From an uncultured Gammaproteobacteria bacterium (GTDB taxonomy: Bacteria > Patescibacteriota > Microgenomatia > Levybacterales > GWA1-39-11): a stretch of 64,000 nucleotides of DNA. The notes below the pieces were generated by a model. That model worked only from the letters and a program-made list of their open reading frames with translations. It made no database searches and had not been told where the DNA came from. The position numbers and the translations under genes were made by a program. The stretch spans positions 274,052 to 338,051 of the forward strand of contig CAYMYC010000001.1 of NCBI GenBank assembly GCA_964394645.1. Direction: 5' to 3'. This document shows, piece after piece, positions 1,409-23,240 of this stretch (its first letter is position 1; every line of letters starts with the position of its first letter).

Positions 1409-1578
1409 TCTATCCTTCTTTTACCTCTATCACTTTTAAGTATTCTCATCTCTGTATCTAGATCCTTTTCAAAGTCATCCAGTCCTTATTTTATTACATA
1501 ACAAAATGTTGGTAAATTTCATAAATTCTCATAGAATTTTATAATTTATATCCTGTAAAGTGTAAATTTGTAGCTAAA

Positions 1579-3900
1579 ATGATACAATCAGTATTAATTA
1601 TGACGAAATTACCTTTTAAAGTATCCGCTAGAACAGCAAGGCTAATTGGTCGAGAGAACGTCAGTAACGCTGATGGAGCACTAATAGAACTTATTAAGAA
1701 CGCCTATGACGCAGATGCTACTCAGGTATCTGTGATATTTGATGGTGATGATTTGTTTATTATCGATAATGGTCACGGTATGACGGAAGAAATAATTCGG
1801 AATTCATGGATGACCATTGGAACCAATAATAAAGAGCTTGAGCCTTACTCACCTGATCATAGAATAAAGGCAGGGGCAAAAGGGATTGGCAGATTTGCGC
1901 TAGATAGACTTGGTAAAACAGTTGAGATGTTCACTCTACCGAAAGGACAAACTACAGGATTTTTGTGGACTGTAGATTGGAGTGATTTTGAAAAAAGTAG
2001 TGCAACAGTAAATGATGTCAATGCAAATCTAGAAGAGATAGTAAAGCTAAACATAGATCAAAAATTGCCTCATAAAATACTGGATGATCGAAAAATTAAG
2101 CTGAAATTTCCAGACGGTGGAACAATACTTAAGATATCAGCATTACGAGACCCGTGGACAAAAGAAGCGCTTTATGGGCTTTTCAGAGGGATGGAATCAT
2201 TAGTTCCTGTTTTAGAAGATGATTCTTTTTCTATAATTTTACTTTCATCTAGGTATAACGATGAATTTGGAGCAGTTAAGCCTTTAATAAATGATGATTA
2301 TGACTATAAAATGCAGGCAAAATATGACTCAGAAATTGGTAAGGTCTCAATAAAAATTGAACGAAACGAATTTGATTTATCTCAAATCGAAAAGAAATTT
2401 GCGGGTGTGTTTGATAATCCTTTAATGAAGGACTTTCCTTATGACTTAACTACTTTCAAAAAAGGTGAATTTACACAGATTTATACTACACAGGAAATAA
2501 TGAAAGGATCCGAAGATTTAAGTACTCCTTTAAAGATGATAGGAGATTTCATTTTCACGCTTTCTTTTGCAAAAAACACATCTCCAGAAAAAGACTCTGG
2601 AAAGTATCCGTATAAAAACGCGAACTATAAACTGAGAAGCGATTGGTTGAAAAAATTTGGAGGAATAAAAATATATAGAGATAACTTTAGGGTTAGACCA
2701 TATGGGGAATCTGGGGAAGATTGGCTAAAATTAGGAGAAAGGGCTGCTCAAAGTCCAGCTGGTCCCGGTCAAGGTCTAGGAGGGTACAAAATTAGACCAA
2801 ACCAAGTCGTAGGATCAATTGCCATATCACGCATACACAATAAGGGGTTAGAAGATAAATCAAGCAGAGAAGGGATTGTTGAAAATGAAGTATTTAATGC
2901 GTTCAAAGAACTGATTTTGAAAATAATTTCAGTATTAGAAAAAGATCGCAATACTATTTTTGTCTCCTTTTCTAAACTTTACGAACAGACAAGTGAAAAT
3001 GAAAGGATAAAAAGAGAAGCTCAAGAAGCTGCTGCTAGAATAGCTGAAAAGATAAAAAAAGATAACGGAACTCCACCTTTCTTTGAAGATCCAGATTTAA
3101 AGGACGATGCTGCAAAAGTTACGAAGGCTTTTAAGGTTTTAGAAGATGAAATTGTAGAAAAAAACGAAGAGAATAAAATACTTAGAAGCTTAGCAAGTGC
3201 TGGATTAATAACAGCAGCCGTTACACATGAACTACGAGGACTAGAAAATGTACTACTAACAAGAAATGATGAACTGAGAGGGCTTATTAAGCCGTACATA
3301 AAAGATGATCAGCTTAAAGAGGTTAATGCTGCCTATAATCCCTTTGTTTTATTAGATGAAATGAAGAAAACAGATACTGACCTTCATGAATGGATAAGTT
3401 ATGCCTTAACTCCACTTAAGAAAGATAAGCGAGATAAAAAAATAATAGTTTTGAGGAATTATTTTGAAGACTTGTATAGCATGTGGAAATATATACTAAA
3501 CGAAAGAAAAATATCTTTTGCTTGTGATAACTTTGATGAGAAATTTGCAATAACAGCATATCTAATAGATCTAGATACTATTTTTAACAATTTAATAATT
3601 AATTCAATAGAATCTTTTTCAAAAAAGAAAGATAGTCATGAAAGAAGTATCAAGATTTCATGTGTAAAAGATAAGGAATACTACAAAATAACGTACTCTG
3701 ATAATGGTATTGGACTTCACAGTACATATAGTAAAAACCCAAATGATATATTCGCTGCTCAAGAGACTACAAAAAAAGACGGTACTGGTATGGGTATGTA
3801 TTTGGTTAAAAGTGTTGTAGACGAAAATAAGGGAAAAATTAATTTATTGTCTCCAAAAGAAGGATTTTCTCTATCTATATCTATGCCTATTAAGGAATAA
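1579..3900 (+). CDS. dual GHKL-domain histidine-kinase-like ATPase (N-terminal Bergerat-fold ATPase plus C-terminal H-box and HATPase_c)
   Basis: N-terminal N-box ELIKNAYDADAT and G1-box DNGHGM. In the C-terminal half, an H-box-like THELRG after a coiled-coil region, then a second N/G1/G2 set (NLIINSIESF, DNGIGL, GTGMGMYL) typical of sensor histidine kinases. Confidence 0.6.
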   Translation: MIQSVLIMTKLPFKVSARTARLIGRENVSNADGALIELIKNAYDADATQVSVIFDGDDLFIIDNGHGMTEEIIRNSWMTIGTNNKELEPYSPDHRIKAGAKGIGRFALDRLGKTVEMFTLPKGQTTGFLWTVDWSDFEKSSATVNDVNANLEEIVKLNIDQKLPHKILDDRKIKLKFPDGGTILKISALRDPWTKEALYGLFRGMESLVPVLEDDSFSIILLSSRYNDEFGAVKPLINDDYDYKMQAKYDSEIGKVSIKIERNEFDLSQIEKKFAGVFDNPLMKDFPYDLTTFKKGEFTQIYTTQEIMKGSEDLSTPLKMIGDFIFTLSFAKNTSPEKDSGKYPYKNANYKLRSDWLKKFGGIKIYRDNFRVRPYGESGEDWLKLGERAAQSPAGPGQGLGGYKIRPNQVVGSIAISRIHNKGLEDKSSREGIVENEVFNAFKELILKIISVLEKDRNTIFVSFSKLYEQTSENERIKREAQEAAARIAEKIKKDNGTPPFFEDPDLKDDAAKVTKAFKVLEDEIVEKNEENKILRSLASAGLITAAVTHELRGLENVLLTRNDELRGLIKPYIKDDQLKEVNAAYNPFVLLDEMKKTDTDLHEWISYALTPLKKDKRDKKIIVLRNYFEDLYSMWKYILNERKISFACDNFDEKFAITAYLIDLDTIFNNLIINSIESFSKKKDSHERSIKISCVKDKEYYKITYSDNGIGLHSTYSKNPNDIFAAQETTKKDGTGMGMYLVKSVVDENKGKINLLSPKEGFSLSISMPIKE

Positions 3901-3903
3901 ATT

Positions 3904-4551
3904 ATGATGTACAAAATTTTTTATATTGATGAAGATAAAGCGGCAGTACACAGATTAACAAGATCTCTTGGCACTGATTTTGAAATTATAGAAGGCTTTT
4001 CGGATGGTATTACCCTTGAAACACTTACCCCCATATTAGACGAAAAGGACTTTGATTTTTTGCTAGTTGATTCAAACTTAAATGAGAAAAGTGGTTGCGG
4101 ATTTAACGGCGAAGATGTGATTGGGTATTTCACAAAGAAATTTCCTCACTTTCCTGTCATGCTCTTCACTAACTATGATGATCAGGTCGTATCAGAGATC
4201 GAAAATTTTGACATTAACAAAATTTACAGTAAACGAGAGTTGATAGAAGAGGAAGCGAAGAATGTATTTATAATGAGAATCAATAGAATTATTAATGAGT
4301 ATAAGCTATCAGTAGAAGCAGCTGAAAGAAAAATAGTAGAGTTAGTTGAAAAAAATAAATCGGGGAAAACATTAACAGCTATTGAAGAGCAGGAGCTCAT
4401 TCAGCTAGATGCATACCTGGATGAAGTACAGGATGCAGATGTCACCCGCATCCCAGAACAAATAAAAGCATCAAATGCAAATAAAATAGATGAGCTATTA
4501 AGTAAAACTGACAACTTAATTGAGAGACTTCAAAAGTATGAGAGTATTTAG
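3904..4551 (+). CDS. receiver (REC)-like domain protein with C-terminal coiled-coil extension
   Basis: Starts 4 nt after the kinase-like gene. The N-terminal ~120 aa have a response-regulator-like pattern (hydrophobic strand then acidic YIDEDK, a second strand ending LLVDSNL, VMLFTNYDD); the C-terminal ~90 aa are charged and helical. Confidence 0.45.
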   Translation: MMYKIFYIDEDKAAVHRLTRSLGTDFEIIEGFSDGITLETLTPILDEKDFDFLLVDSNLNEKSGCGFNGEDVIGYFTKKFPHFPVMLFTNYDDQVVSEIENFDINKIYSKRELIEEEAKNVFIMRINRIINEYKLSVEAAERKIVELVEKNKSGKTLTAIEEQELIQLDAYLDEVQDADVTRIPEQIKASNANKIDELLSKTDNLIERLQKYESI

Positions 4552-5179
4552 ATCTAAACATCCAAAACGAACTTATTCGGGTACTCCAAAAAAACATTAT
4601 TCTGAATACAGAGAAGAATTGAGAAGTGATTTTAACGGAAGGTGTGCATATACAGATTGCGTAGATGTATGGTGGGGGGATGGATTTCACGTTGATCATT
4701 TTGCTCCAAAAAAACCGGATATCGCTGATCCTGATAAACTCAAAAAATTTAAAGAAAGAGAACATTTATACACTAATCTTGTATACGCATGCCCTCAAGT
4801 TAACCGAGCAAAAAGCAATGATTGGGTTTCTGATGATCCAGATATAGCATTTCTGGCAGATAGAGGGTACTTAGACCCATGCGAGGTTGATTATAATGAT
4901 TACTTTGAAAGAACTGACGCAGGTGGAATTGTCCCAAAGGAAAATCCTGTAGCAAAATATATGTGGGTTACATTAAAACTGTACCTAAAAAGGTATGAAT
5001 TGTATTGGCGGATAGAACAAATTACTTTAAGACTGCAAAGACTAATTAAGTTAAGAGGGAATATATCTCTTCCAGCCCCTATTAAGGCAGAGATTGACGG
5101 AAGCATAGCAGACTTAACAGAGGAATATATGAGATACCTAAATTACTTAAATGTAAACTATTTACAGTTAGTCAGATAG
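4520..5179 (+). CDS. HNH endonuclease domain protein
   Basis: HNH signature: CAYTDC ... HVDHFAPK ... YACPQVNRAKSND (His-Asn-His metal finger). The ORF overlaps the preceding REC-like ORF by 32 nt in a different frame. Confidence 0.55.
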   Translation: MRDFKSMRVFRSKHPKRTYSGTPKKHYSEYREELRSDFNGRCAYTDCVDVWWGDGFHVDHFAPKKPDIADPDKLKKFKEREHLYTNLVYACPQVNRAKSNDWVSDDPDIAFLADRGYLDPCEVDYNDYFERTDAGGIVPKENPVAKYMWVTLKLYLKRYELYWRIEQITLRLQRLIKLRGNISLPAPIKAEIDGSIADLTEEYMRYLNYLNVNYLQLVR

Positions 5180-5264
5180 ACTACCTCTATACACATTTTG
5201 CCTGCAGACAGGACATAACAATTGTTATACAATTTTACTTAGTACCCTTAGTAGAGCTCTAAAA

Positions 5265-6557
5265 ATGAAAAAATCTAACACTGTCCTAGATAATGGCTGG
5301 AAAGTAAAAATTGGATTCTATCCCACTCCTGATAATTTGGTAGATCAATTTGCGCAATATACTTTCGACTTCTATAAAGATCATAATTCTAACAATGAAA
5401 TAAAATTACTTGATTTGTTTGCTGGTGATGGACGTTTAGGTTATTCTGTAAAGAATTACTTTTCTCAAAATAAATATACCACTAAGCGTACATATCTTGA
5501 AATACAACAAGATGAAATAAGGAAAATTATACAAAAGGAAAAAAAAGCAACAATTATCAATGTAAATGCTTTTGAATGGAGACCTAACGAGAAATTTGAC
5601 TTAGTTGTTTCTAATCCCCCATATTTAATTTTGAATTCCCCTGAAGCAAAAAAACTAGGATTTGACTGGGAGTATGTTAAAAAACATGGTAGAAATCTAT
5701 ATACATTGGGTATTATAAAAGCTTTGGAGTTATGTAAAGAAGGTGGAATAGTAGCTGTAATATCTCCTTTTAGTTGGTTGCGAGGAGAATTTAGTCATGT
5801 ATTTAGAAAAGAGATAAATTCTTTATGCAAGGAGGTCTTAATTCGAGCTAACGATCATAGAACCATTTTTAAAGGGGTAAATCAGGACATTGGAATACAA
5901 TTTTTTGTAAAGCGCACACAGATGGATACGTCTATTACTAAATGGATGTTTGGTTATAACGGATTTGAACCCCAAAAGATTCCATTCAAAAGAATGGATG
6001 AGTTGAATGGACTTAAAATCAAATTAGATTCACGTATTATGGTAGGACCTGTGGTTTGGAATAGAAATAAGCAATATCTATCTAAGAAACTCTCAGGTAC
6101 GACGTTAGTTATTTATGGAGGGAATATAACCCATAGTGGAAAATTAGATATAAAAGTAGAACGATATAAAGAAAAACAATACATTGCTAACTCTGCTTTA
6201 CCAAAAACCTCACTTTTTGAGTCTCCTCTAATTTTAATTCGAAGAGTTATGCGAGGGATTCCTGGAAATTGGCAGATTGATTCTTGTCTTATTGAGAAAC
6301 CATTCAAATGCACAGTAGAAAATCACGTTATTGTTATAGAAATTCCGAGTGGGAAAATAGATTCTTACAAGCATTTCTATCAGAAGCTAATGAGTAAAAT
6401 AAAAGAGTATTATTATTTCTCTGGAAGCCCTTCAATTAGTGGTAAAGTAGTTAAACGATTAATAAGTGAACTTGAAAATGAATATAACTATGAAGTTAAG
6501 AAGATATTTGAAAAAAACAATATGACGGATGCATCATCAATGGACTTATTAATATAG
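5265..6557 (+). CDS. N6-adenine DNA methyltransferase (amino-MTase with C-terminal extension)
   Basis: Motif I-like LDLFAGDG followed by motif IV VVSNPPY (order I then IV), plus a ~200-aa C-terminal domain that could act as a target-recognition domain. Confidence 0.6.
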   Translation: MKKSNTVLDNGWKVKIGFYPTPDNLVDQFAQYTFDFYKDHNSNNEIKLLDLFAGDGRLGYSVKNYFSQNKYTTKRTYLEIQQDEIRKIIQKEKKATIINVNAFEWRPNEKFDLVVSNPPYLILNSPEAKKLGFDWEYVKKHGRNLYTLGIIKALELCKEGGIVAVISPFSWLRGEFSHVFRKEINSLCKEVLIRANDHRTIFKGVNQDIGIQFFVKRTQMDTSITKWMFGYNGFEPQKIPFKRMDELNGLKIKLDSRIMVGPVVWNRNKQYLSKKLSGTTLVIYGGNITHSGKLDIKVERYKEKQYIANSALPKTSLFESPLILIRRVMRGIPGNWQIDSCLIEKPFKCTVENHVIVIEIPSGKIDSYKHFYQKLMSKIKEYYYFSGSPSISGKVVKRLISELENEYNYEVKKIFEKNNMTDASSMDLLI

Positions 6558-6858: not shown

Positions 6859-7017
6859 ATGAGTAAAAATTCAATAACATTAAAACAAGCCCGAAAACTC
6901 CTCGGAAAAATTGCAGAGAATATCTCAGACGAAGAACTAGAAAAAGAGATAAAAGTTGCAGAACTCCTCAAGGCTATTTATTTTAATACCGCTTTAGGTC
7001 AAAATAAAGGGAAATAA
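6859..7017 (+). CDS. small (52 aa) helical protein translationally coupled to the serine recombinase; possible recombination directionality factor or regulator
   Basis: ATG at 6859, and the stop TAA overlaps the recombinase ATG (TAATG). It is below the 60-aa cutoff of the ORF track. An inverted repeat CCAGCAA-N9-TTGCTGG (6845-6867) lies just upstream. Confidence 0.3.
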   Translation: MSKNSITLKQARKLLGKIAENISDEELEKEIKVAELLKAIYFNTALGQNKGK

Positions 7018-8573
7018 TGGAAAAGATTGCATCAACTATTCAAAAACTTAGAGCTGTCATTTATATTCGGGTTTCCGACCAGAGCCAGATTGATAACAAT
7101 AGTCTTGAAACTCAACTCAAGGCTTGTAATACTTTTGCAGAAAGTAACAGTTATGAAGTAGTCAAGGTATTTAGAGAAGAAGGTGTATCAGCAAAGCATA
7201 CCCATAATCGTCCTCAAATGCGTGAGCTTCTTGAATTTTGCACCTTAAAGAAAAATAGAGTTTCTGGAGTTATAGTCTACAAGATGGATAGATGGTCAAG
7301 AAACGTAGAGGAAGGACTCCTGGCAGAGTCTCTCCTTGCAAAATATGGTGTAGCAATTCTTCCAGCAACTGAAATAACAGAACAAAACCCAATAGGCAGA
7401 GCAGTAAGAACAATCTTAATGACAATGGGGCAGTTGGATAATGAATTAAAGGGTGCAAGAGTTAAGGACAATATGCAAGCAATGTTTCGTAAGGGCTTTT
7501 GGTGTTGGAAACCCCGTATGGGATACAAACGACCCTTCAAAACAAAAGAAGAAAATAAAGGTAAGCCCATGATATTTGATGGGAAGTTAAGTGAAATTAT
7601 TAGGGCATTATTTATAAAAGCGGCAGAAGCACCAGTTAGTAAAAAATACTTAGCTGACTATATAAATAAACTAGGATTTAAATCTGCATATGGTAAAGAA
7701 GCTGATGGAAGAACAGTATCAAGAATACTGAAAGACACTTTTTATTATGGATATATGTACGGCAAGAAATGGAATGAGTATGCGTGGGGAAAGCATAAAT
7801 CTTTAACAGATCAACCTACATGGGAAAGAGCTAGCTTAAATGTATTTGGGAGAAAAGGTAAATACAAACACCAAGATAGTGCGTTGTACGTATTAAAGGG
7901 GAGCTTAAAGTGTTCTAGTTGCGATAATCCATTAACTACGAGCAATCCAAGAGGAACAAGTAGAAATTACCTTTATTATGAATGTCATAACAGCCGTTGT
8001 GACAAGAAAATGAGAATAGGATTAGACGTAGCACATAGTGAGTTTGTTGAGATATTAAAATCAATTAGACCATCAGAACGAGTCTTAAGAATTTTCAGCC
8101 ATTTAGTTTTTACTGAATGGGATAAAAGTATTGCCGACAAAAAGCGTGAGGCAGATTTGCTAGACAGCCAAATAAAAAACTTGGAAGGAAAGTTAACCGC
8201 AATCGCAGAAAGTAACGCTAAAGGTATTCTCACAGACAAGGAAGCACAAGTAGGTGCTGAGAGTATTAGAAAAGATGTTACTATTTTCAGAATTGAGCGT
8301 GCCGATATTCGAATAGAACAATATAGTGAAGAGGCTGTTAGAAATTTCGTAGAAAACTTTTTAGTTCATTTGGATAAGTTGTGGATGCAAATCGAGTTGT
8401 CACACAAACAAGCGTTACAAAGTGAGATATTTCCTGATGGTTTAGTTGCCGAAAACAGAAAAATTCGAATTGTTAATTTAGCAAGTACCTTCAAGCTAAT
8501 TCAGACATTAGGAGATGAGAATGTTGATTTGGTGAGCCAAACGGGTTTGGAACCAGATAGGCCTTATAACTGA
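7017..8573 (+). CDS. large serine recombinase (resolvase/invertase catalytic domain plus recombinase and zinc-ribbon domains)
   Basis: N-terminal VIYIRVSDQSQ with the catalytic Ser in a resolvase-type motif, a mid recombinase domain, a Cys-rich zinc ribbon (CSSCDNPL ... YYECHNSRC) and a C-terminal coiled coil. Confidence 0.8.
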   Translation: MEKIASTIQKLRAVIYIRVSDQSQIDNNSLETQLKACNTFAESNSYEVVKVFREEGVSAKHTHNRPQMRELLEFCTLKKNRVSGVIVYKMDRWSRNVEEGLLAESLLAKYGVAILPATEITEQNPIGRAVRTILMTMGQLDNELKGARVKDNMQAMFRKGFWCWKPRMGYKRPFKTKEENKGKPMIFDGKLSEIIRALFIKAAEAPVSKKYLADYINKLGFKSAYGKEADGRTVSRILKDTFYYGYMYGKKWNEYAWGKHKSLTDQPTWERASLNVFGRKGKYKHQDSALYVLKGSLKCSSCDNPLTTSNPRGTSRNYLYYECHNSRCDKKMRIGLDVAHSEFVEILKSIRPSERVLRIFSHLVFTEWDKSIADKKREADLLDSQIKNLEGKLTAIAESNAKGILTDKEAQVGAESIRKDVTIFRIERADIRIEQYSEEAVRNFVENFLVHLDKLWMQIELSHKQALQSEIFPDGLVAENRKIRIVNLASTFKLIQTLGDENVDLVSQTGLEPDRPYN

Positions 8574-8740
8574 CATTTTACATCCTTATAGCACCCCAGA
8601 GCAAATGTCTCACACCTGTGGCTAAATAAGACAAATGAGACAGTATAAAAAGGAATGTTCCAAAATCTTCTGACATAGTTTGATATAGTCCTTAGTTTTC
8701 CAGGGTAAATATTGTAAAATTGGGTGATTCTGCCTGATTT

Positions 8741-9313
8741 ATGGCAGAGGTAAAGACTCGTTTAACATTAAAGAAAATAAGGCTTGTCCTATTTACTCGT
8801 TCCTATGCGAACTATCGCGTATCTCAGGAGATAAAAAGGAAATATAAACTAGATAATAAATTAACACCTAAAGAATTGCGAATGAATTACTTCAAGAAAA
8901 GAGCAATACCGGAAATAGCAAGACTGTCCCATGCGCTAAATCTTGCCTACAACCCCTTATGGGGGTCATTACTTCTCAATAAAACTCCGCCACTTAATAA
9001 GAAAATGCCGGATAGTGAGAAAATAAAGGCATATCTTGCGATTGAACGTGAATTAATCCTACTTTCAGAAACAAAAAAGAACAAATCAAGCCAATTTTTT
9101 GATCCAGATTATGATCAGGAATTTGCGATACTTTCAGTTGCAATTGAAAGAGCTGTAGGAAATAAACTTATAGATATTGAGGACGATTCTGCATTTGGAC
9201 ATCAACAAGAAATCCTACAAAAACTATACTTAAGATGGTATTACAAAGTGGCGTGGAAGTATAAGCTCCCGACTACGAGAATAGTACCATTTGTAATTAG
9301 ATTAATTAGCTGA
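8741..9313 (+). CDS. hypothetical protein
   Basis: Intact ORF; basic N-terminus; no motif recognised. Confidence 0.3.
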   Translation: MAEVKTRLTLKKIRLVLFTRSYANYRVSQEIKRKYKLDNKLTPKELRMNYFKKRAIPEIARLSHALNLAYNPLWGSLLLNKTPPLNKKMPDSEKIKAYLAIERELILLSETKKNKSSQFFDPDYDQEFAILSVAIERAVGNKLIDIEDDSAFGHQQEILQKLYLRWYYKVAWKYKLPTTRIVPFVIRLIS

Positions 9314-9577
9314 TTCCCAGAATTCGTATTCTGAACCATCCTTAAAGTTTTTATCGTCAATCATTCTTTTAACCCTGACTAAACCTTTTTGCTCTAAGGA
9401 ATCAGTAACGTTTGTAGTCATTGATCTTGCTTCAGTTCCAGATATTTTTTCCCAAACACTAAAGACTTTCTGGTCGTCTTTCCAAACTCCCAGAAATACT
9501 TGAGTATTATCGCCGGTCTTTGGTTGAGGATGAATCTCAATCCTATATTCTTTATAATTTTCTTCTTTCAATTTCAC
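9302..9577 (-). CDS. hypothetical small protein (last gene of a five-gene minus-strand operon)
   Basis: 91-aa ORF, 10 nt downstream of the preceding minus-strand gene. Confidence 0.35.
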   Translation of the reverse strand: MKLKEENYKEYRIEIHPQPKTGDNTQVFLGVWKDDQKVFSVWEKISGTEARSMTTNVTDSLEQKGLVRVKRMIDDKNFKDGSEYEFWESAN

Positions 9578-9587
9578 ACACCTCCTT

Positions 9588-10505
9588 TCATCTCTCGACT
9601 CTCTTTATTTGATCACCTTCCTGCTTCCAAATACTCCCAAACTTAAAGAAGTTATCTGGTAATGGATTTTTCGCAAAAGGATTGTGGACTATTACAAAAT
9701 TGTCACCTATATGATTTTGATCTCTAGGGCTATTCAGAATATCATGAACAGAGTAAATAATAGAACTTATTCTTTCGAAGCTTGAATCTCTAAACATGAG
9801 CATTCTTACTTCACTTCCACTGATTTTGCTAACTTTTTCTCTTGCGGACCAAGTACTTTCATCTGGTGTAGGTCGGGATTTTTCTCCTCTAAGAAATAGA
9901 ACCTGATGACCGATGGCAAAAAGGCATTTAAGAATCAGAGGTATCTGTGCGTCAGGGTGATCTAGGGGGGAACGATCAATTGCAATTACGAACGGATCAT
10001 TTTCATTCACGCTATGGTTTTTCAAGTACGACAAGTACTTGTCATGCTTTTCTTTTAATCCTGCAGTTAGTCTTAAGAGCATCTCTTGCTCCGGAACATC
10101 CATCGCTTTTCCGTACTCAATATCCGGCACTTTATCGTGCCCGTTACCTTTTTTAACAGCAATGGCTTCTATCCACACGTTCTGATTGTTATACGGAATC
10201 TTAAAATCAGGACCTGAACTACTATGGACTCCTAATGCGTAACCTCTATTTAGTAATGTAGATCCCAAATGTAATTCCCAAGCCCGTTGGCTAAATTGTT
10301 TTTTAAATTCGTTAGAGAAATTTGAATCAGCGTAAGCTTCATATTGCTTCCAAAGCGATTCCAAATCTTCTCGAAATTCAGGACGAGTAGTCATGGTAGA
10401 TATGGCAACGTAGGAAGGGTCGTAATAGCTAAATTTCCTTTTTAACGTATCAAGTTCTATGCTATTAGAAGCGATGCCTAAATCTTCGTTGAATAATTTT
10501 GTCAT
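9588..10505 (-). CDS. hypothetical protein (operon gene 4)
   Basis: 305-aa ORF, 7 nt downstream of the HNH gene; no confident motif. A segment GPDFKI...VWIEAIAVKKG is weakly PD-(D/E)xK-like. Confidence 0.4.
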   Translation of the reverse strand: MTKLFNEDLGIASNSIELDTLKRKFSYYDPSYVAISTMTTRPEFREDLESLWKQYEAYADSNFSNEFKKQFSQRAWELHLGSTLLNRGYALGVHSSSGPDFKIPYNNQNVWIEAIAVKKGNGHDKVPDIEYGKAMDVPEQEMLLRLTAGLKEKHDKYLSYLKNHSVNENDPFVIAIDRSPLDHPDAQIPLILKCLFAIGHQVLFLRGEKSRPTPDESTWSAREKVSKISGSEVRMLMFRDSSFERISSIIYSVHDILNSPRDQNHIGDNFVIVHNPFAKNPLPDNFFKFGSIWKQEGDQIKRVER

Positions 10506-10512
10506 ATCGTAT

Positions 10513-11124
10513 TTAATCTACCTCCACCATGAACATTAGCCCATCATAAAAAACGTATACCCATAAACTTTTTGCTCCCATATCTTTTACAAACACTCTC
10601 CACATTCTAAACACACCGTCACCTCTTTCCACATAAAAATACTTCTGATAAAGCATATCTACAATTTGTTGATTGGGGATTATATTATTAATCTTAAATT
10701 TTGCATTAGAGTAGTCAATCTCAGGATTGAAGTGTTTAGTAAAACCTTTAGTTAGTCTGACGAGATATTCTTTTGTTTTCTTAACCGGATAAGTCATTCC
10801 GGTTTGTTGTACTTTTATGCCATTAATTTCGGTCTCAAGTGGGACAAGGCTTTTAATAGTAGCTTGCTTTAACTTTGGACTCCTTTTAAAAGATGACTCC
10901 ATTACTTTATTGCTCCAAATCCATGAGCCAGATTTTGACCTGTTAACTACTGAGGATGTAAAAACTCTAAAAGACTCGTCAATTAAACTAAACTTTTCGT
11001 TACATTTTTTACAACACCATACGGTAATAAGATTATTTGGTTTTGGGGATGGAAAAAGATTTTTCGGAGGAATATGGTCTTTTGTTAAATTTTCAGTAGC
11101 TCCGCATAGGTAACAGTTTTTCAT
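10513..11124 (-). CDS. HNH endonuclease family protein (operon gene 3)
   Basis: N-terminal CYLCG ... LTKDHIPPKNLF ... WCCKKCNEKFS, a CxxC...DH...CxxCN HNH zinc-finger arrangement. Confidence 0.5.
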   Translation of the reverse strand: MKNCYLCGATENLTKDHIPPKNLFPSPKPNNLITVWCCKKCNEKFSLIDESFRVFTSSVVNRSKSGSWIWSNKVMESSFKRSPKLKQATIKSLVPLETEINGIKVQQTGMTYPVKKTKEYLVRLTKGFTKHFNPEIDYSNAKFKINNIIPNQQIVDMLYQKYFYVERGDGVFRMWRVFVKDMGAKSLWVYVFYDGLMFMVEVD

Positions 11125-11130
11125 AATAAT

Positions 11131-11703
11131 TCATATACCCCAAATATACTTTAATCTCTTCTCAAAATTTGTTCTTAAAACCGTATTCAAAGGATCTTTC
11201 AAATCTTTTACGTATTGATTGAAATGACTTTGTATATCTTCTACTAATTTGCCTGGACATATTTTTATGTTTCCTTTCACTATTCCAATTCCGGATGAAA
11301 TCGAACAATCTAATATTATCTTTGTTCCTGTTAAACCAACGTGATACATACCACAACGAGCTTGTTCATAAACTACCTTTGTTAAAGCATCCCTATCTTT
11401 ATGACTCTTAAATTTTGGATATACCCATTTCAAACCTTCTGTAAAGAATGCTTCTGATTTTCCGGCCTTGTCATAACCATCCTTAAATTTTTGAATATTT
11501 TCAAAATATGCCATCATTATTGATAGCATGGCAAAGTCGGAATGACCAACTTTAGTTTTTATCTCTTTTAATACATCTAAAGTCCATCCCTGAATTTGTT
11601 CTTCAAAAAGCCTAATTTTATGCTTTTCAAAATCCCAATCATCCCATTTTGTAGGAAAGTCACTTCGCTTTGATTTTGATGAAATACTCAAATTGTTTTT
11701 CAT
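11131..11703 (-). CDS. hypothetical protein (operon gene 2)
   Basis: 190-aa ORF, 6 nt downstream of gene 1 and overlapping it by 4 nt at its own 5' end. Confidence 0.4.
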   Translation of the reverse strand: MKNNLSISSKSKRSDFPTKWDDWDFEKHKIRLFEEQIQGWTLDVLKEIKTKVGHSDFAMLSIMMAYFENIQKFKDGYDKAGKSEAFFTEGLKWVYPKFKSHKDRDALTKVVYEQARCGMYHVGLTGTKIILDCSISSGIGIVKGNIKICPGKLVEDIQSHFNQYVKDLKDPLNTVLRTNFEKRLKYIWGI

Positions 11704-12659
11704 ACTCTATTAATTAATGGCGTTTTAGTTATTGGAACAAATACAGGGATAAATTTAATGCCATTTTGATCTAATTGCACGTCTAATAAACATACACAAG
11801 AAATAAGATTGTTTAAATCGTATTTTTCAACAATTTTCTTTACGGAACTGCCCTCATTCATACTGGTAAATAACCCAGTTCCTATACCTGCAAACATGTT
11901 GTGGGCAATAACTAGTAAGTTATTTTTATCTTCAGAAAATTGAGATACTGATTTTTTAACAGCATCTTCAACAGCTTCTCTGTCTGAATAAGAGCCGCCT
12001 TCCCCGTTAATAAACTGGGGCTTAGATAGTCGCTCTTTCTTTAATTTGGCCCTTTCTGTTTCAGAAAAATGCCAAATATTCTTCCTACAATCAGTGCAAA
12101 CAGTTTTCTTAAGAATTTCATACACTTCCTCCGTTGTAAATTCAAAACTCGATAGTTTTATTTCTATCGAATGCGAACATTCGAGACAGGGAATTTCCGC
12201 TTTACACTCCGGCCAACTTTCAGTAATTACTAAAGTTTGCTTTAGCTTTTCAAGATATAAATTGTCTATTTTTTTTGAAACTTCACCCCTCCAGGAGGGA
12301 GATTTGACTTCGGAGTACCATTCTTCAGAGACCTGATCATCAAAGGCAAAATCATTTTTCTTTGTTCTATTGCCGTATGGTTCAAATTTAGTTATATTAC
12401 ACCCTTTTATTTTTCCGAAATAATATAGAGCCTTGTATTCTCCGAGTAGTTCATCTCTCTGTTTCTCAGAGTTGACGCGTGATTTATTTGATTCGTACCA
12501 CGTGGGGTTTAGAGAGTTTACATAAGACAGCCATTGTTCCATTTCTTGATTCCATTCTGGACTATGACCAAAATCGTCAGTGTATTCATGAGAACCAAAC
12601 AAATCCACAAAAAGTGGTACATTTTGTTTGACTAATTCTTTTATGTATTTCAGGCTCAT
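11700..12659 (-). CDS. hypothetical Cys-cluster protein (operon gene 1)
   Basis: 319-aa ORF with CxxC-type pairs (CKAEIPCLECSH, CTDCRKN) suggesting a zinc ribbon; no catalytic motif recognised. Confidence 0.4.
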   Translation of the reverse strand: MSLKYIKELVKQNVPLFVDLFGSHEYTDDFGHSPEWNQEMEQWLSYVNSLNPTWYESNKSRVNSEKQRDELLGEYKALYYFGKIKGCNITKFEPYGNRTKKNDFAFDDQVSEEWYSEVKSPSWRGEVSKKIDNLYLEKLKQTLVITESWPECKAEIPCLECSHSIEIKLSSFEFTTEEVYEILKKTVCTDCRKNIWHFSETERAKLKKERLSKPQFINGEGGSYSDREAVEDAVKKSVSQFSEDKNNLLVIAHNMFAGIGTGLFTSMNEGSSVKKIVEKYDLNNLISCVCLLDVQLDQNGIKFIPVFVPITKTPLINRV

Positions 12660-12728
12660 GTTTTAGCTTTTCTTTTTGCATTCGAATTATATTACAATAC
12701 GAGGGTAGAAAGCTAGAATTATAGGATT

Positions 12729-13463
12729 ATGAAAAAGGATTATCTTGAAGAAAAGAAAAAGAGATTGGCACAGAAAATCAAGGTACTTATTAATAGACCT
12801 GCATTTCAAAAGGAAATTCATGATCTGAGAATAAAATGGAAAATCCCGACCGATGGTATTAAGAATGAGGAAGATAACCAGAATTGGAATATGCAGCTTG
12901 GTATAGATACGGACGAGTACTATACAAAGAACTGGCCGAAAGAAAGGGCTGAGATCATAAAGCTAAGAAAAGAAGGAAAATTTAGAGAAGCAGACAACTT
13001 GAAAAAACAGATTAATGTGGACGCACCGATAAATGCTTTCAGTGAAGATATATGGATCGTTGTGAGGAAATACAGACTTTCTCCCAGATGGCACAATGGA
13101 ATCCGCCGCTACCTACTATTTAATGATCCAAAAAATATGCAAATACCAGCAGGCATTACAGTCGCAATGAATTGGGATAACGGTATAAAACGGATTTCCC
13201 TTGAGATTGACGACGACACTACTCTTAATGATCTAAAGCATGTTTGGAAATGGGCAAGAAAAATGCGTAAAGGTAGATTGTCCGATAAATTCCAACCAAT
13301 TCCTAATTTTGATAGAGATAAAAGGGCTTATGAACTTGAATTAGAAGGAAGAACCGAAAAAGAAATCGGAGATACAATACAAGAGGAATTTGGAGATAGC
13401 CTTGATTACAACGAACTTAAAATTGTAATAAAACGCTACAAAAAACGCCTCAACATCAATTGA
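12729..13463 (+). CDS. hypothetical protein
   Basis: 244-aa charged ORF between the minus-strand operon and the ParB-methyltransferase gene. Confidence 0.35.
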   Translation: MKKDYLEEKKKRLAQKIKVLINRPAFQKEIHDLRIKWKIPTDGIKNEEDNQNWNMQLGIDTDEYYTKNWPKERAEIIKLRKEGKFREADNLKKQINVDAPINAFSEDIWIVVRKYRLSPRWHNGIRRYLLFNDPKNMQIPAGITVAMNWDNGIKRISLEIDDDTTLNDLKHVWKWARKMRKGRLSDKFQPIPNFDRDKRAYELELEGRTEKEIGDTIQEEFGDSLDYNELKIVIKRYKKRLNIN

Positions 13464-13512
13464 GCTTAATTGATGTTTATACATCTGTTCTCTACCTTCA
13501 TATACTCTTCTT

Positions 13513-14847
13513 ATGTTCACAGAAAAACAAAACCTAAATGTAGTTTATGTTCCAATAACAGACCTTCTTCCCGCAACATATAATCCACGCAAGTGGAATG
13601 AAGAAGCAATAGCTCAACTCACAGAAAGCATGAAGCGCTTCGGGTTAGTTGACCCAATTGTTGTTAATGGTGCTCCCGAAAGAAAGAATATAGTAATAGG
13701 CGGTCATTTCAGGGTTAAGGTTGCAAAAGATTTGGGATATAAAGAAATTCCAGTTGTATACATAAATATCCCAGATTTAGAAAAGGAAAAAGAGTTGAAC
13801 CTTCGTCTTAATAAAAATGTAGGAGATTGGGACTGGAGTCTTCTATCAGAATTTGGAGAAACAATGCTAGCGGATGTTGGATTCTCAAGCGAACAACTTG
13901 ACGATATTTTTGACATTGAAGATACTCCTGAGCAGTTTGACCTTCAAAAAGAACTTGAGAAATTAGATATAACGCAAATTGAAATTCAAAAGGGAGACGT
14001 ATGGCAACTTGGTGAAAGTAAGCTCATGTGCGGAGACTCCACCATAGAAGATGATGTCCTTAAATTAATGAGCGACGAAAAAGCCAGCATGTGCTTCACA
14101 GACCCGCCCTACATTTTGGACTACCTCAACGGCAAGAAAAAACATGGAAAAGCAACCGAAGGTTTTGGTGCAAAGCGTGATAGGAGATATCTTGAGACAG
14201 ATGTACTACCTCCTGATTTTACTGAAAAATGGATGGCAAATATAGCTAAAGTGCAGGAAGAAAGTTTCTCAATAATTGTTTATGAGAATTGGAAGAACCT
14301 AAGAATCATATGGGGAGAGATGGAAAAGTATTGGAAGTTAAAGAACATGATAGTCTGGCATCTTCCAAACAGGAACCAAGGATTTGCTGCAAAGTATAAG
14401 TTCTTCTCAAAACATGATATCGCAATGGTTGGAGCTTCTCCCAATGCAGATGTTGAATACAATAACGAACTAGAAACAGACGGACTTCAAGAAGAATACG
14501 AAACAGCCCTATATGCAATTTCCGGCAAACCCCAATGGGAAGGATATCAGAAAGGCAAAAAGATACAACCTACTGATTTTATTGAATACGTTGCATCAGA
14601 TGAAAAACATTCTGGGCAAGGCGTAATCTTTGGAACAAAACCCATTGAAATTCTCATCCCATACATAAAAGTGCTTACAAAACGTGGAGATTTAATAATA
14701 GAGCCGTTCGGTGGTAGTGGTTCGACACTAATTGCTGCAACCAAAATGAAACGCAGATGCAACATTATGGAAAAATCCCCTGTTTATGCTGAAGTAATTA
14801 AAAAACGTTGGGAAAAGTTAACCAGACAGAAAGGAGTCAAGATATGA
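13513..14847 (+). CDS. ParB-like nuclease domain fused to a DNA methyltransferase (phage-type ParB-MTase)
   Basis: N-terminal ParB-N-like segment (VVYVPITDLLPATYNPRKW ... GGHFRVKVAKDLGYKEIP). Methyltransferase motif IV CFTDPPY precedes the motif I-like EPFGGSGSTLIAA (beta-class order). Confidence 0.8.
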   Translation: MFTEKQNLNVVYVPITDLLPATYNPRKWNEEAIAQLTESMKRFGLVDPIVVNGAPERKNIVIGGHFRVKVAKDLGYKEIPVVYINIPDLEKEKELNLRLNKNVGDWDWSLLSEFGETMLADVGFSSEQLDDIFDIEDTPEQFDLQKELEKLDITQIEIQKGDVWQLGESKLMCGDSTIEDDVLKLMSDEKASMCFTDPPYILDYLNGKKKHGKATEGFGAKRDRRYLETDVLPPDFTEKWMANIAKVQEESFSIIVYENWKNLRIIWGEMEKYWKLKNMIVWHLPNRNQGFAAKYKFFSKHDIAMVGASPNADVEYNNELETDGLQEEYETALYAISGKPQWEGYQKGKKIQPTDFIEYVASDEKHSGQGVIFGTKPIEILIPYIKVLTKRGDLIIEPFGGSGSTLIAATKMKRRCNIMEKSPVYAEVIKKRWEKLTRQKGVKI

Positions 14848-15248
14848 AGACTGACAAAAATAAGGAATTACTAATTGAACAGCTCAAGAAAACTCCCATT
14901 GTTCAAGTTTCTTGCGAGAAAGTCGGAATAGGACGCGCCACATTTTACCGCTGGAAACAGGAAGACCAAGACTTTGCAACAAGAGCAGATGAAGCGCTTG
15001 CTGAAGGATCATCTCTTGTGAACGATGTAGCTGAATCTCAATTAATGTCAGCAATTAGAGATAAGAATCTGACTGCCATAATTTTCTGGCTTAAACATCA
15101 TCACCCAAGCTATGCAACAAAGGTTGAGGTAACTGCAAGACTTAAAGCAGATAACGAAGTATTAACCCCAAAGCAAGAAGTATTAGTAACCAAAGCCTTA
15201 AAACTTGCTGCATTAATCCCAGAAACAAAGGAGGAAGAAAAGCAATGA
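14844..15248 (+). CDS. terS: terminase small subunit (HTH type)
   Basis: RBS AAGGAG sits 8 nt upstream of the ATG at 14844 (the ORF track starts at 14808). The ATGA overlaps the upstream stop, and ATGA at the 3' end overlaps the terL start. Contains an HTH-like GIGRATFYRWKQ. Confidence 0.6.
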   Translation: MKTDKNKELLIEQLKKTPIVQVSCEKVGIGRATFYRWKQEDQDFATRADEALAEGSSLVNDVAESQLMSAIRDKNLTAIIFWLKHHHPSYATKVEVTARLKADNEVLTPKQEVLVTKALKLAALIPETKEEEKQ

Positions 15249-16786
15249 CTACAGGTATAATTACTAACAAAGAGCTTGATGAAATCAAGAAGAAAAGATC
15301 AGTAAGGAGAATGCTTGCCAAAAACAGTCATCTCTGGTTCTTCTCAATTTATCTTGGACACTACATTAAATATCCATTTGCTCCATTTCATTCTGAAATG
15401 TTTGCCTTAACTGAAGACCAAGAATTACACCTCTCTGTACTTGTTGCCTTTCGAGGCTCTGGGAAATCAACTCTCATAACCCTTTCCTATCCTATTTGGG
15501 CAGTAGTTGGAGCACAGCAGAAAAAATTTATTCTCATCCTTTCTCAAACACAATCTCAAGCAAAACTCCATATGGCAAACATAAAAAGAGAGCTTGAGAG
15601 CAACGACCTTCTAAAAGGTGACATTGGACCATTTGAAGAAATAAGTGATGAATGGGGATCTAATTCTATTGTTATTTCAAAATATGGAGCAAGAATTACA
15701 GTTGCGTCAACTGAGCAAAGTATTCGTGGACTCAGACATGGTGAGCACAGACCAGACTTAGTCATTTGCGATGATGTGGAAGATTTGAATAGCGTCAAAA
15801 CTCGTGAGGGACGGGATAAAACATTTCAATGGTTAGTAGGAGAAGTACTACCGATCGGAGATCAAGAAACAAAAATTGTAATTGTTGGGAATCTTCTCCA
15901 TGAAGATAGCCTTTTAATGCGACTTAGAAAGGGAATTAAGAACGAAAAGCTTAATGGAAAATATTTTGCGTATCCTTTGCTTGATGTAAATAATACCATT
16001 GCTTGGCCTGCAAAGTTTAAAACCCTTGAGGATATTGAAAAACTAAGAACAACTATTGGAACAGACTCTGCTTGGTACAGGGAGTATCTTTTACGGATTA
16101 TTTCAGATGCTGACCGCTTGGTTCATCCGGAGTGGATTAAATATTATGATGAACTCCCTTCGGAGGAAGGAAACAATTTCAGGTATACGGCAACTGGAAT
16201 TGATCTTGCTATCTCGCAAAAAGAATCAGCAGACTGTACCGCTATGGTATCGGCAAAAGTTTTTGGATACCAAGATGAATTGAAAGTATACATACTTCCC
16301 CATCCAGTAAATGAAAGACTAAGTTTTCCAGAGACTTATGATATGGCAAAAGAATTATCCAAAGAACTTGGAAACGGTCAATATACAAAACTTTATATTG
16401 AAGACGTAGGTTATCAGGCCGCTCTCATTCAAGATTTAGAAAGAAATAATGTTCCAGCGGAAGGAGTAAAAGTTGCAGGTCAAGACAAACGATCACGACT
16501 TGCTTTAATAACCCATCTTATAAAACACGGCAAAGTTCTATTTCCATCGGGAAATCAAGCAGAAGAACTTATTATGCAATTAACTGGTTTTGGGATAGAA
16601 AAACATGATGATCTAGCGGATGCGTTTTCTCTTTTACTTCTTAAGGTGCTTGAAGAAGACGAGGGAGGGTTCGGGTTTTTCTTTATTGGTAGCGTTAATG
16701 ATTTCTATGATAGTAGAAATACCTCTTTATATGATGAATTCGGAGATAGATATGATAAACCTTTTAGCCTAGATAAAATCTTTTAA
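15245..16786 (+). CDS. terL: terminase large subunit
   Basis: Walker A AFRGSGKST, Walker B-like LVICDDVED, a C-terminal RNase-H-like nuclease region with conserved acidic residues (DDLADAF); 513 aa. Confidence 0.8.
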   Translation: MTTGIITNKELDEIKKKRSVRRMLAKNSHLWFFSIYLGHYIKYPFAPFHSEMFALTEDQELHLSVLVAFRGSGKSTLITLSYPIWAVVGAQQKKFILILSQTQSQAKLHMANIKRELESNDLLKGDIGPFEEISDEWGSNSIVISKYGARITVASTEQSIRGLRHGEHRPDLVICDDVEDLNSVKTREGRDKTFQWLVGEVLPIGDQETKIVIVGNLLHEDSLLMRLRKGIKNEKLNGKYFAYPLLDVNNTIAWPAKFKTLEDIEKLRTTIGTDSAWYREYLLRIISDADRLVHPEWIKYYDELPSEEGNNFRYTATGIDLAISQKESADCTAMVSAKVFGYQDELKVYILPHPVNERLSFPETYDMAKELSKELGNGQYTKLYIEDVGYQAALIQDLERNNVPAEGVKVAGQDKRSRLALITHLIKHGKVLFPSGNQAEELIMQLTGFGIEKHDDLADAFSLLLLKVLEEDEGGFGFFFIGSVNDFYDSRNTSLYDEFGDRYDKPFSLDKIF

Positions 16787-17004
16787 AATAGATCTGACAT
16801 GTCAACTTTTAGAGCTCTTGCAATCTTGTTAACTGTTTGAACTGGAGGATTACTTTCTCCTCGCTCAATTTTACCCATATAGGTTCTATGAATTCCAGCT
16901 TTTTCTGCAAGTTTCTCTTGGGAAAGATCCAGTCTTTTTCTAAGTCTTCTAACTGTTTTACCTAATTTGAGGTTAACTTTATAGGATCTTGCTCTATTTT
17001 TCAT
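16783..17004 (-). CDS. XRE-family HTH transcriptional regulator
   Basis: LSQEKLAEKAGIHRTYMGKIERGESNPPVQTVNKIARAL is a classic Cro/C1-type HTH. Confidence 0.7.
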   Translation of the reverse strand: MKNRARSYKVNLKLGKTVRRLRKRLDLSQEKLAEKAGIHRTYMGKIERGESNPPVQTVNKIARALKVDMSDLF

Positions 17005-17124
17005 TGATTTATAGTATGAAGAATGACCCTGTAGGTCTACATACGCTAAGGGTGCAAAATAGCCTCAAATACTACTTGCTTTTGTTATTGCTTTCGCTTA
17101 TCATTTGGACTAGAGAGGAATAAG

Positions 17125-18091: not shown

Positions 18092-18225
18092 GTATATCTA
18101 TAAAAGACATTTCGGGTTAGAGAGCTTACCCTCCGAGATGTCTTTTAGTTATAAACACTACTTGACATCATATAGTTTATGTGTTAAACTATTTAACAGG
18201 TAAACTTATAGTTTAGCCCTGCCTT

Positions 18226-20317: not shown

Positions 20318-20323
20318 ATAGTT

Positions 20324-20716: not shown

Positions 20717-20720
20717 AATT

Positions 20721-21709: not shown

Positions 21710-21717
21710 AATAAGAT

Positions 21718-22656: not shown

Positions 22657-22705
22657 ACTTGTGGTAAAATTACTATGGAAATTATAGTACTACAATATTT
22701 ATAGT

Positions 22706-23041: not shown

Positions 23042-23240
23042 GGCAATGAAAGAAGAAAAAGAGTCATTCAGATATCCCGCAATTACTGAATACAAAAACT
23101 CTTCTCCTGTTAAATATTTATGGATATTAGGAGGTTTTATAGCTCTATTAATTGTTTCCGTCACTCTCTTTATTATTTTTAAGATATAGTATTTTCCCTA
23201 CTGGACTTCATGGGTTTTCTGCGGTACCTTCTACCCTGAA

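Follow-up and report, generated by a model that had tools for sequence, protein, structure and literature searches.

What kind of system is encoded where the genes of a histidine kinase, a receiver-like protein, an HNH nuclease and a DNA methyltransferase (MTase) follow one another on the same strand? The four genes occupy positions 1579 to 6557 of the stretch of DNA analysed here (64,000 nucleotides (nt), positions 274,052 to 338,051 of contig CAYMYC010000001.1 in assembly GCA_964394645.1; hereafter the window). The original prediction had read the first three as a two-component-like defence module, a variant of the Detocs system, standing next to an adenine MTase. Judged from the sequences, the four genes very probably form an anti-phage system that resembles restriction-modification (R-M) and belongs to the Ambrosia family; it would travel as mobile cargo beside a serine-recombinase element, and a phosphorelay would license its HNH nuclease. 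The genes of this cassette and their putative domains, in window positions, are as follows.

1579 to 3900, plus strand: open reading frame (ORF) of 773 amino acids in the ORF listing; putative AbrB-like sensor kinase, by Pfam, AlphaFold2 (AF2) model, Foldseek, BLASTP and family hidden Markov model (HMM)
1600 to 2193, plus strand: N-terminal Bergerat (GHKL) ATP-binding domain, by invariant motifs
2194 to 2886, plus strand: middle, beta-rich, transducer-like domain, by invariant columns and fold match
2887 to 3201, plus strand: coiled-coil linker of three long helices in the AF2 model, joining the MORC-like module to the DHp
3202 to 3420, plus strand: DHp helical hairpin with H-box, by motif and AF2 helices 542-563 and 581-607
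3421 to 3897, plus strand: C-terminal catalytic (CA) HATPase_c domain, by Pfam (2e-15) and invariant residues
3904 to 4551, plus strand: ORF of 215 amino acids in the ORF listing; putative AbrC-like receiver protein (REC)
3904 to 4248, plus strand: REC domain with D9/E10, phospho-acceptor D56 (nt 4069-4071), T89 and K110
4249 to 4551, plus strand: all-helical C-terminal output region of the receiver, conserved, by AF2 model
4520 to 5179, plus strand: ORF of 219 amino acids in the ORF listing, with a TTG start
4538 to 5179, plus strand: putative HNH nuclease, 213 amino acids from the ATG, by PADLOC PtuB, HNH_I-A and TIGR02646, with a helical C-terminal tail
5265 to 6557, plus strand: ORF of 430 amino acids in the ORF listing; putative N6-adenine DNA MTase, by Pfam Eco57I (3.7e-15) and PADLOC MTase_II (2e-22)

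Ambrosia is an anti-phage system of Pseudomonas aeruginosa composed of AbrR (XRE), AbrA (N6-adenine MTase), AbrB (HATPase), AbrC (REC) and AbrD (HNH), and each of its genes is needed for defence, as point mutants show: AbrB N40A and AbrC D60A lose it, and H60 of AbrD was mutated also (van den Berg et al. 2025, bioRxiv 10.1101/2025.09.30.679545). The system was reported 537 times, in Gammaproteobacteria only (10.1101/2025.09.30.679545). We took the Ambrosia protein sequences from Table S1 of that preprint and compared them with HMMs of the window's protein families, built from 80+ loci (Z=1). The kinase profile matched AbrB with 243 bits, the receiver profile matched AbrC end to end with 62.7 bits, aligning D56 to D60, and the HNH profile matched AbrD with 85.7 bits, while the MTase profile matched AbrA with 49 bits, over the catalytic domain only. 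Because all four family profiles match AbrA to AbrD, we place the cassette in the Ambrosia family. By BLASTP, the window kinase aligned collinearly with AbrB(1-399) at 29% identity (E 5e-42) and the window HNH protein with AbrD at 26% identity (E 1e-16). Sizes and layouts are alike as well: AbrB has 747 amino acids against 766-773 in the window, with HATPase_c_3 and HATPase_c in that order in both; AbrC has 209 against 215, a REC with a helical tail; AbrD 213 against 213, a PtuB-like HNH; and AbrA 448 against 430, an N6-adenine MTase. N40 of AbrB, D60 of AbrC and H60 of AbrD correspond to N41, D56 and H60 (numbered from the TTG) in the window, where the catalytic residues are intact in both ATP sites, at H550, in the REC quintet, in the D-H/N/N/K set of the HNH and in the NPPY of the MTase. 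We regard the cassette as a putative distant, rearranged relative of Ambrosia, and predict that the window copy acts in defence. The homology supports the idea that kinase, receiver and nuclease form a defensive relay module.

The four genes also travel together. Among 5.8 billion proteins searched, more than 5,000 matched; full-length relatives with 40-64% identity came from the candidate phyla radiation (CPR), Bacteroidota, Acidobacteriota, Deltaproteobacteria and Methanolobus. An exhaustive HMMER search over 1.84 billion representatives yielded 983 clusters (50% identity) at E<=1e-30, and when each species was represented by a single genome, at least 582 genomes contained a relative. For the linkage analysis, HMMs of the four proteins were run against the 80 best loci, six of which were cut by contig ends, leaving 74 with enough DNA. 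Kinase, REC, HNH and MTase were all present in every one of these species-representative loci (74/74), which span Bacteroidota, CPR, Acidobacteriota, Firmicutes, Proteobacteria and archaea. The order kinase-REC-HNH-MTase holds in 70 of the 74, with genes typically abutting or overlapping; in two of the others the MTase lies only upstream, and in two more MTases flank the core. Each complete locus, like the window, carries a single REC-containing gene. The original prediction had called for a check of whether the genes are conserved as a set: they are, and outside housekeeping contexts, and the MTase, which it had described as merely adjoining the module, proves to be a fixed fourth component.

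Relatives were found on 85 PLSDB plasmids, 55 of them conjugative, and on 25 IMG/VR contigs. One on a Bacillus plasmid is annotated 'sensor histidine kinase / hypothetical / HNH endonuclease / N-6 DNA methylase', and one on a Deinococcus plasmid has the order HTH-MTase-kinase-hypothetical-HNH (HTH, helix-turn-helix). The neighbours of the cassette differ from genome to genome, with housekeeping genes in Haliscomenobacter and Bro-N or Panacea genes on metagenomic contigs; in the window, the cassette lies near a serine recombinase, a PD-T7-5 homologue and phage terminase genes. This distribution fits a mobile defence system and not a housekeeping signalling operon. The Fluviicola taffensis site is marked as a defence island by a CBASS operon (SMODS, bacterial HORMA, AAA/TRIP13-like, Sa_NUDIX; L003:14206-17403) lying 700 nt 3' of the cassette MTase.

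What does the kinase sense with? Pfam placed HATPase_c_3 at residues 32-149 (1e-19) and HATPase_c at residues 664-771 (2e-15) of the 773-residue protein. In alignments of 24 and of 74 full-length homologues (42-65% identity), the Bergerat motif residues of the N-terminal domain are invariant: E37 and N41 (ELIKNAYDAD, nt 1687-1716), D63-G-x-G-M (1765-1782) and the lid G99-AKGIGRF (1873-1896). The same alignments showed invariance of H550 and E551 in the H-box THELRG (residues 549-554, the phospho-accepting H550 at nt 3226-3228), and of N671/N675, D708xGxG and G735xGxG in the CA domain, whose boxes comprise N670/N671/N675 (N-box), D708-x-G-x-G (G1), F725 and G735-x-G-x-G (G2). The most conserved motif of the family lies in the middle domain, YRDxFRVRPYGE..DWLxLGER...DKSSREG, nt 2854-2874, with invariant columns from R367 to G432. 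The AF2 model (predicted local distance difference test (pLDDT) 81) shows, in order, the GHKL domain, the beta-rich middle, three long helices (430-464, 466-487 and 498-534 in the model, ORF residues 437-541), the DHp hairpin and the CA domain. Dual ATPase domains and an H-box, as originally predicted, are confirmed by Pfam, the invariant motifs and this model.

Foldseek comparison with the PDB matched the first ~500 kinase residues to MORC2 (9cdg, 5of9) and MORC3 (6o1e, 5ix1), and also to Hsp90, the MORC2/MORC3 matches covering ~510-560 columns at E 5e-12 to 1e-10; the middle domain aligns with the MORC2/3 ATPase module past the GHKL. The last ~250 residues matched the DHp-CA modules of the histidine kinases ZraS, HK853 and YycG. 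The notion that the sensor is a second GHKL ATPase is supported and can be sharpened: because the N-terminal ~500 residues match the MORC2/MORC3 modules, the second GHKL is, on the modelled fold, a MORC-type clamp ATPase and more than a duplicated kinase domain. In the model the middle domain would be an S5-type transducer, with K427 presumably equivalent to the transducer lysine of GHKL ATPases. The protein is a soluble sensor kinase consisting of a MORC-like GHKL+transducer ATPase, a coiled coil and a DHp-CA transmitter. Its N-terminal domain also matches the BbrUII/HgiDII restriction enzymes (NF050001, 1e-17), and in PADLOC only the REase_II, TmtA and Cmr5 models matched the kinase, TmtA and Cmr5 weakly.

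The 215-residue protein reached 21.3 bits with Pfam Response_reg, under the gathering score. Conservation among 80 family members reaches at least 90% at D9, E10, D56, T89 and K110, which we take to be the counterparts of the CheY quintet. AF2 predicts a (beta-alpha)5 fold (pLDDT 80), after which come helices 116-152, 159-175 and 185-214, and 48 of the 50 Foldseek matches listed from the PDB are receiver domains or response regulators, with PorX, VicR, DrrB, PmrA and NtrC1 at the top. The protein described earlier as receiver-like is a true receiver, its fold found by AF2 and Foldseek alike. A search with the single sequence recovered 5 homologous proteins, and a profile from locus-derived sequences 270. 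The tail has no beta strands in the AF2 model, hence no 'wing'; no HTH-type Pfam family appeared among the matches of 34 receiver members, and the tail carries a net charge of -6 in the window, with 78% of 76 members having a negative one. Acidic and, as modelled, helix-only, the tail argues against DNA binding. In Methanolobus (L005/L024, 10693-11184) the archaeal receiver gene follows a 150-nt gap and encodes 163 amino acids, lacking beta1 and its acidic pair; this copy may have decayed or been given the wrong start.

PADLOC PtuB (2.4e-11) and TIGR02646 (7e-07) confirm the third protein as an HNH endonuclease, with scores under the curated cut-offs (29.4 vs 52 and 24.5 vs 150). Its conserved residues, numbered from the TTG, are the catalytic D59-H60 (nt 4694-4699), N86, N95 and K98. 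The zinc site is modified: C42-x4-C47 forms the first pair, and C91 is present with V94 replacing the fourth zinc-ligand Cys. This modified site, together with an insertion, is common to relatives from CPR and Acidobacteriota (L008, L009, L010 and L012), and is a conserved feature of the clade rather than decay. The nuclease belongs to the same clade as those of Septu PtuAB and retron type I-A (TIGR02646, NF041761), where a small HNH is likewise checked by a partner ATPase. Unlike Septu, the cassette has no PtuA-like ABC/AAA-type ATPase, and the partner is the GHKL-kinase with its receiver.

The MTase carries the motifs YPTP, FAGDG (nt 5418-5432) and NPPY (nt 5613-5624), and its 430 residues compare with a median of 592 in relatives (~550-600). 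It aligns with the family MTases over residues 7-219 only, the catalytic half, at ~25% identity. The closest relatives with DNA (59-62% kinase identity) all have an N6_Mtase/Eco57I/M_Eco57I_C enzyme of 545-551 amino acids, its gene abutting or overlapping the HNH gene. We considered whether a ~550-residue MTase had been split by the serine-recombinase element, and rejected this: no trace of one came up anywhere in the 64-kb window in tblastn searches with five canonical MTases. Because the kinase is 59-62% identical to those of relatives with canonical MTases, the MTase aligns over half its length and no remnant was found, the modification module appears to have been replaced; the 430-residue enzyme would be a non-orthologous substitute and not a leftover. 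It has no significant pairwise similarity to AbrA, and true AbrA orthologues gave marginal C-terminal matches only (E 0.005-0.18). The kinase superfamily as a whole is served by at least three N6-adenine MTase subfamilies plus C5 enzymes. In one locus with MTases on both sides of the core (L012, 5233-8004 and 11531-13210), the upstream enzyme has 923 amino acids.

The spacing of the genes was examined next to their starts. Three nucleotides, with an AAGGA Shine-Dalgarno read off the sequence, separate the kinase stop from the REC start, and the REC and HNH reading frames overlap by 14 nt, which agrees with the three adjacent plus-strand genes originally described; kinase, REC and HNH are predicted to be translationally coupled. 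A scan of the 85-nt HNH-MTase spacer found no terminator-like site. The public gene call starts the HNH at ATG 4538 (213 amino acids). The kinase probably starts at nt 1600, since homologue alignments open at M8. A promoter-like site, TTCATA-16-TATAAT (1518 to 1545, plus strand; 10/12 in a consensus scan), lies in the 170-190 nt gap 5' of the kinase; promoter-like sites in the region are no more numerous than in shuffled sequence, so that this one is weak evidence. The four ORFs, long and with conserved homologues, are far beyond chance. In the entry closest to the window kinase (P0002, 64% identity) there are overlapping genes on both sides. Four loci have one cassette gene split in two ORFs, the kinase in L008:8001-10318, the HNH in L035:5766-6380, the REC in L041:10496-11151 and the MTase in L069:11783-13365; either frameshifts have made pseudogenes of them or the assemblies are in error.

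Where does the cassette part from Ambrosia? Its order is B-C-D-A, against R-A-B-C-D in Ambrosia. The Ambrosia gene order was found in L015, L057, L093, L100, L103 and L105-L109, and true Ambrosia orthologues (AbrA 37-39% identical), with the order MTase-kinase-REC-HNH, occur among the IMG/VR loci. The window host is probably a member of the CPR, judging by the nearest relatives (Paceibacterota and Saccharibacteria), a GC content of 34% and a source contig of 550 kb, and the window's clade spans Bacteroidota, CPR, archaea and others. In P. aeruginosa, AbrR is a HipB-like XRE protein, encoded by the first gene, and essential (10.1101/2025.09.30.679545). Small XRE-type HTH genes (66-85 amino acids) abut or overlap the kinase start in ~19 of 78 loci (L003, L017, L019, L020, L026, L027, L030, L031, L038-L041, L052, L064, L068, L075, L079, L080 and L086), mostly just 5' of position ~8000 in the loci, and they fall into at least three unrelated sequence families. 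Because these families are unrelated, a C-protein-like XRE regulator appears to have been recruited repeatedly, as an optional add-on in the window's clade.

Several points weigh against assigning the window cassette to Ambrosia and to a relay acting directly on the nuclease. Identity to AbrB is only 29%, and REC and AbrC are not significantly similar by pairwise BLASTP. No AbrR-type XRE was found: positions 1409-1599 hold no HTH ORF, and neither of the upstream genes (37-576 and 668-1408) gave an HTH match. The window's clade is known as sequence, whereas Ambrosia has been demonstrated by mutagenesis. The window MTase is not orthologous to that of any relative and is separated from the HNH gene by the 85-nt gap, so that it might instead be part of the neighbouring mobile element. 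One canonical zinc-ligand cysteine is lost in the HNH, and the last helix of the receiver model has low confidence (pLDDT 43-58, residues 171-200). Finally, the operon reporters of Ambrosia are induced by infection, and AbrC was read as a transcription factor with a winged HTH (10.1101/2025.09.30.679545).

How might the parts work together? The clamp module would meet DNA or an infection cue, with ATP driving its closure or dimerisation. The change would travel through the coiled coil to the DHp-CA and bring about autophosphorylation of H550, as the intact invariant motifs suggest. The phosphoryl group would then pass from H550 to D56 of the receiver, whose equivalent Asp is essential in Ambrosia, and the phosphorylated receiver would license the PtuB-type HNH to cut DNA. 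The N6-adenine MTase would provide a DNA mark, with a role in self-protection, sensor conditioning or as the nuclease target. We lean towards licensing by direct protein contact through the helical tail of the receiver, which we consider somewhat probable and favour over control by transcription because the tail is acidic, helix-only and without an HTH match, the genes are coupled, receiver-X fusions exist and VcSduA offers a precedent. VcSduA (Shedu) is a GHKL-controlled nuclease with validated function in defence (PMC12137116).

The working model of the Ambrosia preprint differs on this point, holding that the phosphorylated receiver is a DNA-binding activator of silent MTase and HNH genes and that the HNH cuts DNA bearing the methyl mark of the system itself. 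In its favour, mNeonGreen at abrA or abrD was barely on before infection and strong during it, D60A abolished defence, and phage from AbrA-expressing cells stayed sensitive (10.1101/2025.09.30.679545). We think the model doubtful, since the receiver output, to which AbrC aligns end to end, has three helices, neither strands nor an HTH match, and an acidic character in 78% of members; Table S1 of the preprint gives AbrC only Response_reg (10.1101/2025.09.30.679545). Moreover, the receiver and kinase genes share a translationally coupled operon with the genes supposedly induced, and with no XRE in the window part of the transcriptional control layer is missing. A conventional ATP-dependent, Type II-like R-M system, in which the MTase protects host sites, the MORC-like kinase and the HNH attack incoming DNA that is unmethylated, the relay only tunes activity and the whole acts as a selfish addiction module, is in our view unlikely. 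It would account for the N-terminal GHKL matches to BbrUII/HgiDII and PADLOC REase_II, for the MTase in every complete locus (74/74) and for the exchange of MTases between subfamilies, which is typical of a change in R-M specificity, and paraMORC ATPases are classic R-M partners (PMC2292703). However, methylation by AbrA did not protect phage in Ambrosia, phage from AbrA-expressing cells remaining sensitive (10.1101/2025.09.30.679545), and the self-protective role once suggested for the MTase finds no support there. The HNH, besides, is of the PtuB/retron-effector clade and not of a sequence-specific restriction endonuclease family, and replacement of the MTase without the kinase and HNH (62% vs ~25% identity) is hard to square with a matched recognition sequence. 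Iyer, Abhiman & Aravind (2008, PMC2292703) had already noted a 'paraMORC1' family of GHKL proteins whose C-terminal extension is conserved and which turns up together with HNH genes in R-M surroundings, and the window kinase shares with MORC and paraMORC proteins the GHKL + transducer module, the intact ATP motifs and the association with a methylase and an HNH. In MORC, VcSduA and BbrUII-type systems the nuclease is fused or directly partnered, whereas the window places a histidine kinase transmitter and a receiver between clamp and nuclease.

The Detocs reading, with a DtcA-like kinase, a DtcB-like buffer and an HNH effector, names the wrong family. Detocs consists of a TPR-kinase DtcA, a stand-alone buffer receiver DtcB and a receiver-effector fusion DtcC, whose effector is in 80% of cases a PNP acting as an ATP nucleosidase and causing abortive infection; a minority of operons have endonuclease effectors, and no methyltransferase occurs (Rousset et al. 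2023, 10.1101/2023.01.24.525353). What the cassette shares with it is the logic of a defensive His-Asp relay that needs both the His and the Asp: a soluble kinase detects infection, and the toxic effector, in some Detocs operons an endonuclease, is under the control of a receiver. The window kinase, in contrast, begins with a MORC-like GHKL+transducer and has no TPR match, there is one receiver and no buffer receiver, that receiver has only a helical tail with the HNH as a separate polypeptide, and the MTase is obligatory in the family. No Detocs-named PADLOC model matched any cassette protein, whereas the components match Ambrosia. We therefore rejected membership in Detocs for want of a TPR sensor, a second receiver and a receiver-effector fusion, and a Detocs variant is very improbable. 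More improbable still is a housekeeping two-component pair with an HNH and an orphan MTase as chance neighbours. RefSeq does label homologues merely 'sensor histidine kinase' and 'hypothetical protein'; against this stand the linkage in 74 of 74 loci across phyla and domains, by which chance adjacency is rejected, the patchy and mobile distribution on plasmids and proviral contigs, a receiver without DNA-binding output and the homology to a validated defence system.

Setting out from licensing by direct contact, we tentatively propose, as a possible further step, that the relay is the coupling device of a restriction machine: the MORC clamp would read DNA (its methylation or structure), the phosphorylated acidic adaptor would unlock the HNH directly, and the MTase would be exchangeable since the sensor reads the mark. 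If true, this would be the first case of self/non-self discrimination on DNA passed to a nuclease by phosphotransfer, and would provide a tractable bacterial model of MORC ATPase signalling.

An association of this kind of kinase with R-M genes has been noted before. Proteins with HATPase_c_3 + HEF_HK + HATPase_c are linked in 91.6% of cases to a response-regulator (RR)-like protein in R-M-enriched neighbourhoods (Bellieny-Rabelo et al. 2021, PMC8011034). That purely computational study found mostly C5 methylases with Vsr and no fixed four-gene system, and proposed a link of HEF_HK proteins to paraMORC ATPases (PMC8011034). Like the window, these elements have a soluble kinase of HATPase_c_3 + DHp (His-Glu) + HATPase_c beside an RR-like gene in an R-M context; the RR-like protein has the canonical Asp, Thr and Lys, and nearby R-M genes include HNH variants (PMC8011034). 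Their partners are mostly C5-cytosine methylases and Vsr, in contrast to the N6-adenine MTase and PtuB-like HNH of the window. Searches for PF19191 (HEF_HK) and PF19192 (Response_reg_2) gave no match at E<=1 in 24 kinases and 34 receivers, nor at E<=0.1 in seven distant kinases and two receivers, in a Pfam copy in which the presence of these models is unconfirmed.

Among distant relatives we observed three-gene cassettes of a C5 methylase, a MORC-kinase and a receiver of 300-346 amino acids, on Campylobacter conjugative plasmids and proviral IMG/VR contigs. These have a REC with a ~200-residue extra domain instead of a separate HNH, and are probably the 2021 HEF_HK family, though without PF19191/PF19192 matches. 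The long-receiver genes are L092:7171-8193, L118:8727-9767, L111:10292-11197 and L113:10580-11509. Their ~200-residue C-terminal domain had no Pfam or PADLOC match; a TP[SA]CD[IL] motif is common to L092 and L118, and the domain could represent a receiver-fused effector not recognised so far.

Downstream of the cassette, the window bears out the accessory region beside a mobile recombinase that was first described. The nearest large gene is as follows.

7017 to 8573: large serine recombinase, by Pfam Resolvase/Recombinase/Zn-ribbon

An ORF of 51 amino acids (6862-7018, plus strand; MSKNSITLKQARKLLGKIAENISDEELEKE...) without a Pfam match overlaps the recombinase ATG with its 3' end and may be a directionality or regulatory factor. 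The recombinase and a second large one (23241-24572; phrog_95, 8e-60) bound a prophage-like or mobile region, 7017-24572, whose left end the cassette adjoins. Within it are a ParB_N+N6_N4 methylase (13513-14847), a small-terminase-like HTH protein (14808-15248), a large terminase (15245-16786) and a phrog_2034 member (18662-20317); a Dda-like helicase (26402-27979) lies beyond. Beyond the recombinase, at a distance of 3 kb from the cassette, the PD-T7-5 homologue (9588-10505, minus strand, 305 amino acids; PADLOC PD-T7-5 1.5e-24, PD-T7-1 1e-15, phrog_8571) adds a second defence gene. Three co-directional genes follow behind it (10513-12659, minus strand). One encodes an HNH_5 protein (203 amino acids, 5.5e-08) with weak PDC-M01B matches; the 190- and 319-residue products of the others had no Pfam or PHROG match, the former giving a weak PADLOC '2TM effector' match. 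These genes may be a further defence operon.

What was known before is Ambrosia itself (2025) and the association of dual-GHKL proteins with RR-like and R-M genes (2021); added here are a wider range, a permuted gene order, the lack of an XRE and a swapped MTase. For annotation, the cassette is not among the systems that PADLOC 2.0 recognises, and homologues of its genes go under the labels 'sensor histidine kinase / hypothetical protein / HNH endonuclease / N-6 DNA methylase'. The Ambrosia-type four-part machine appears to belong to a much larger and older family that extends beyond Gammaproteobacteria. Because two gene orders occur, the XRE is optional and the MTases are interchangeable, its conserved core would be the kinase, the receiver and the HNH, and that an MTase of some subfamily is nonetheless always present narrows the possible mechanism. 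A receiver tail that seems unsuited to DNA binding and an MTase that can be swapped both bear on the published working model of Ambrosia.

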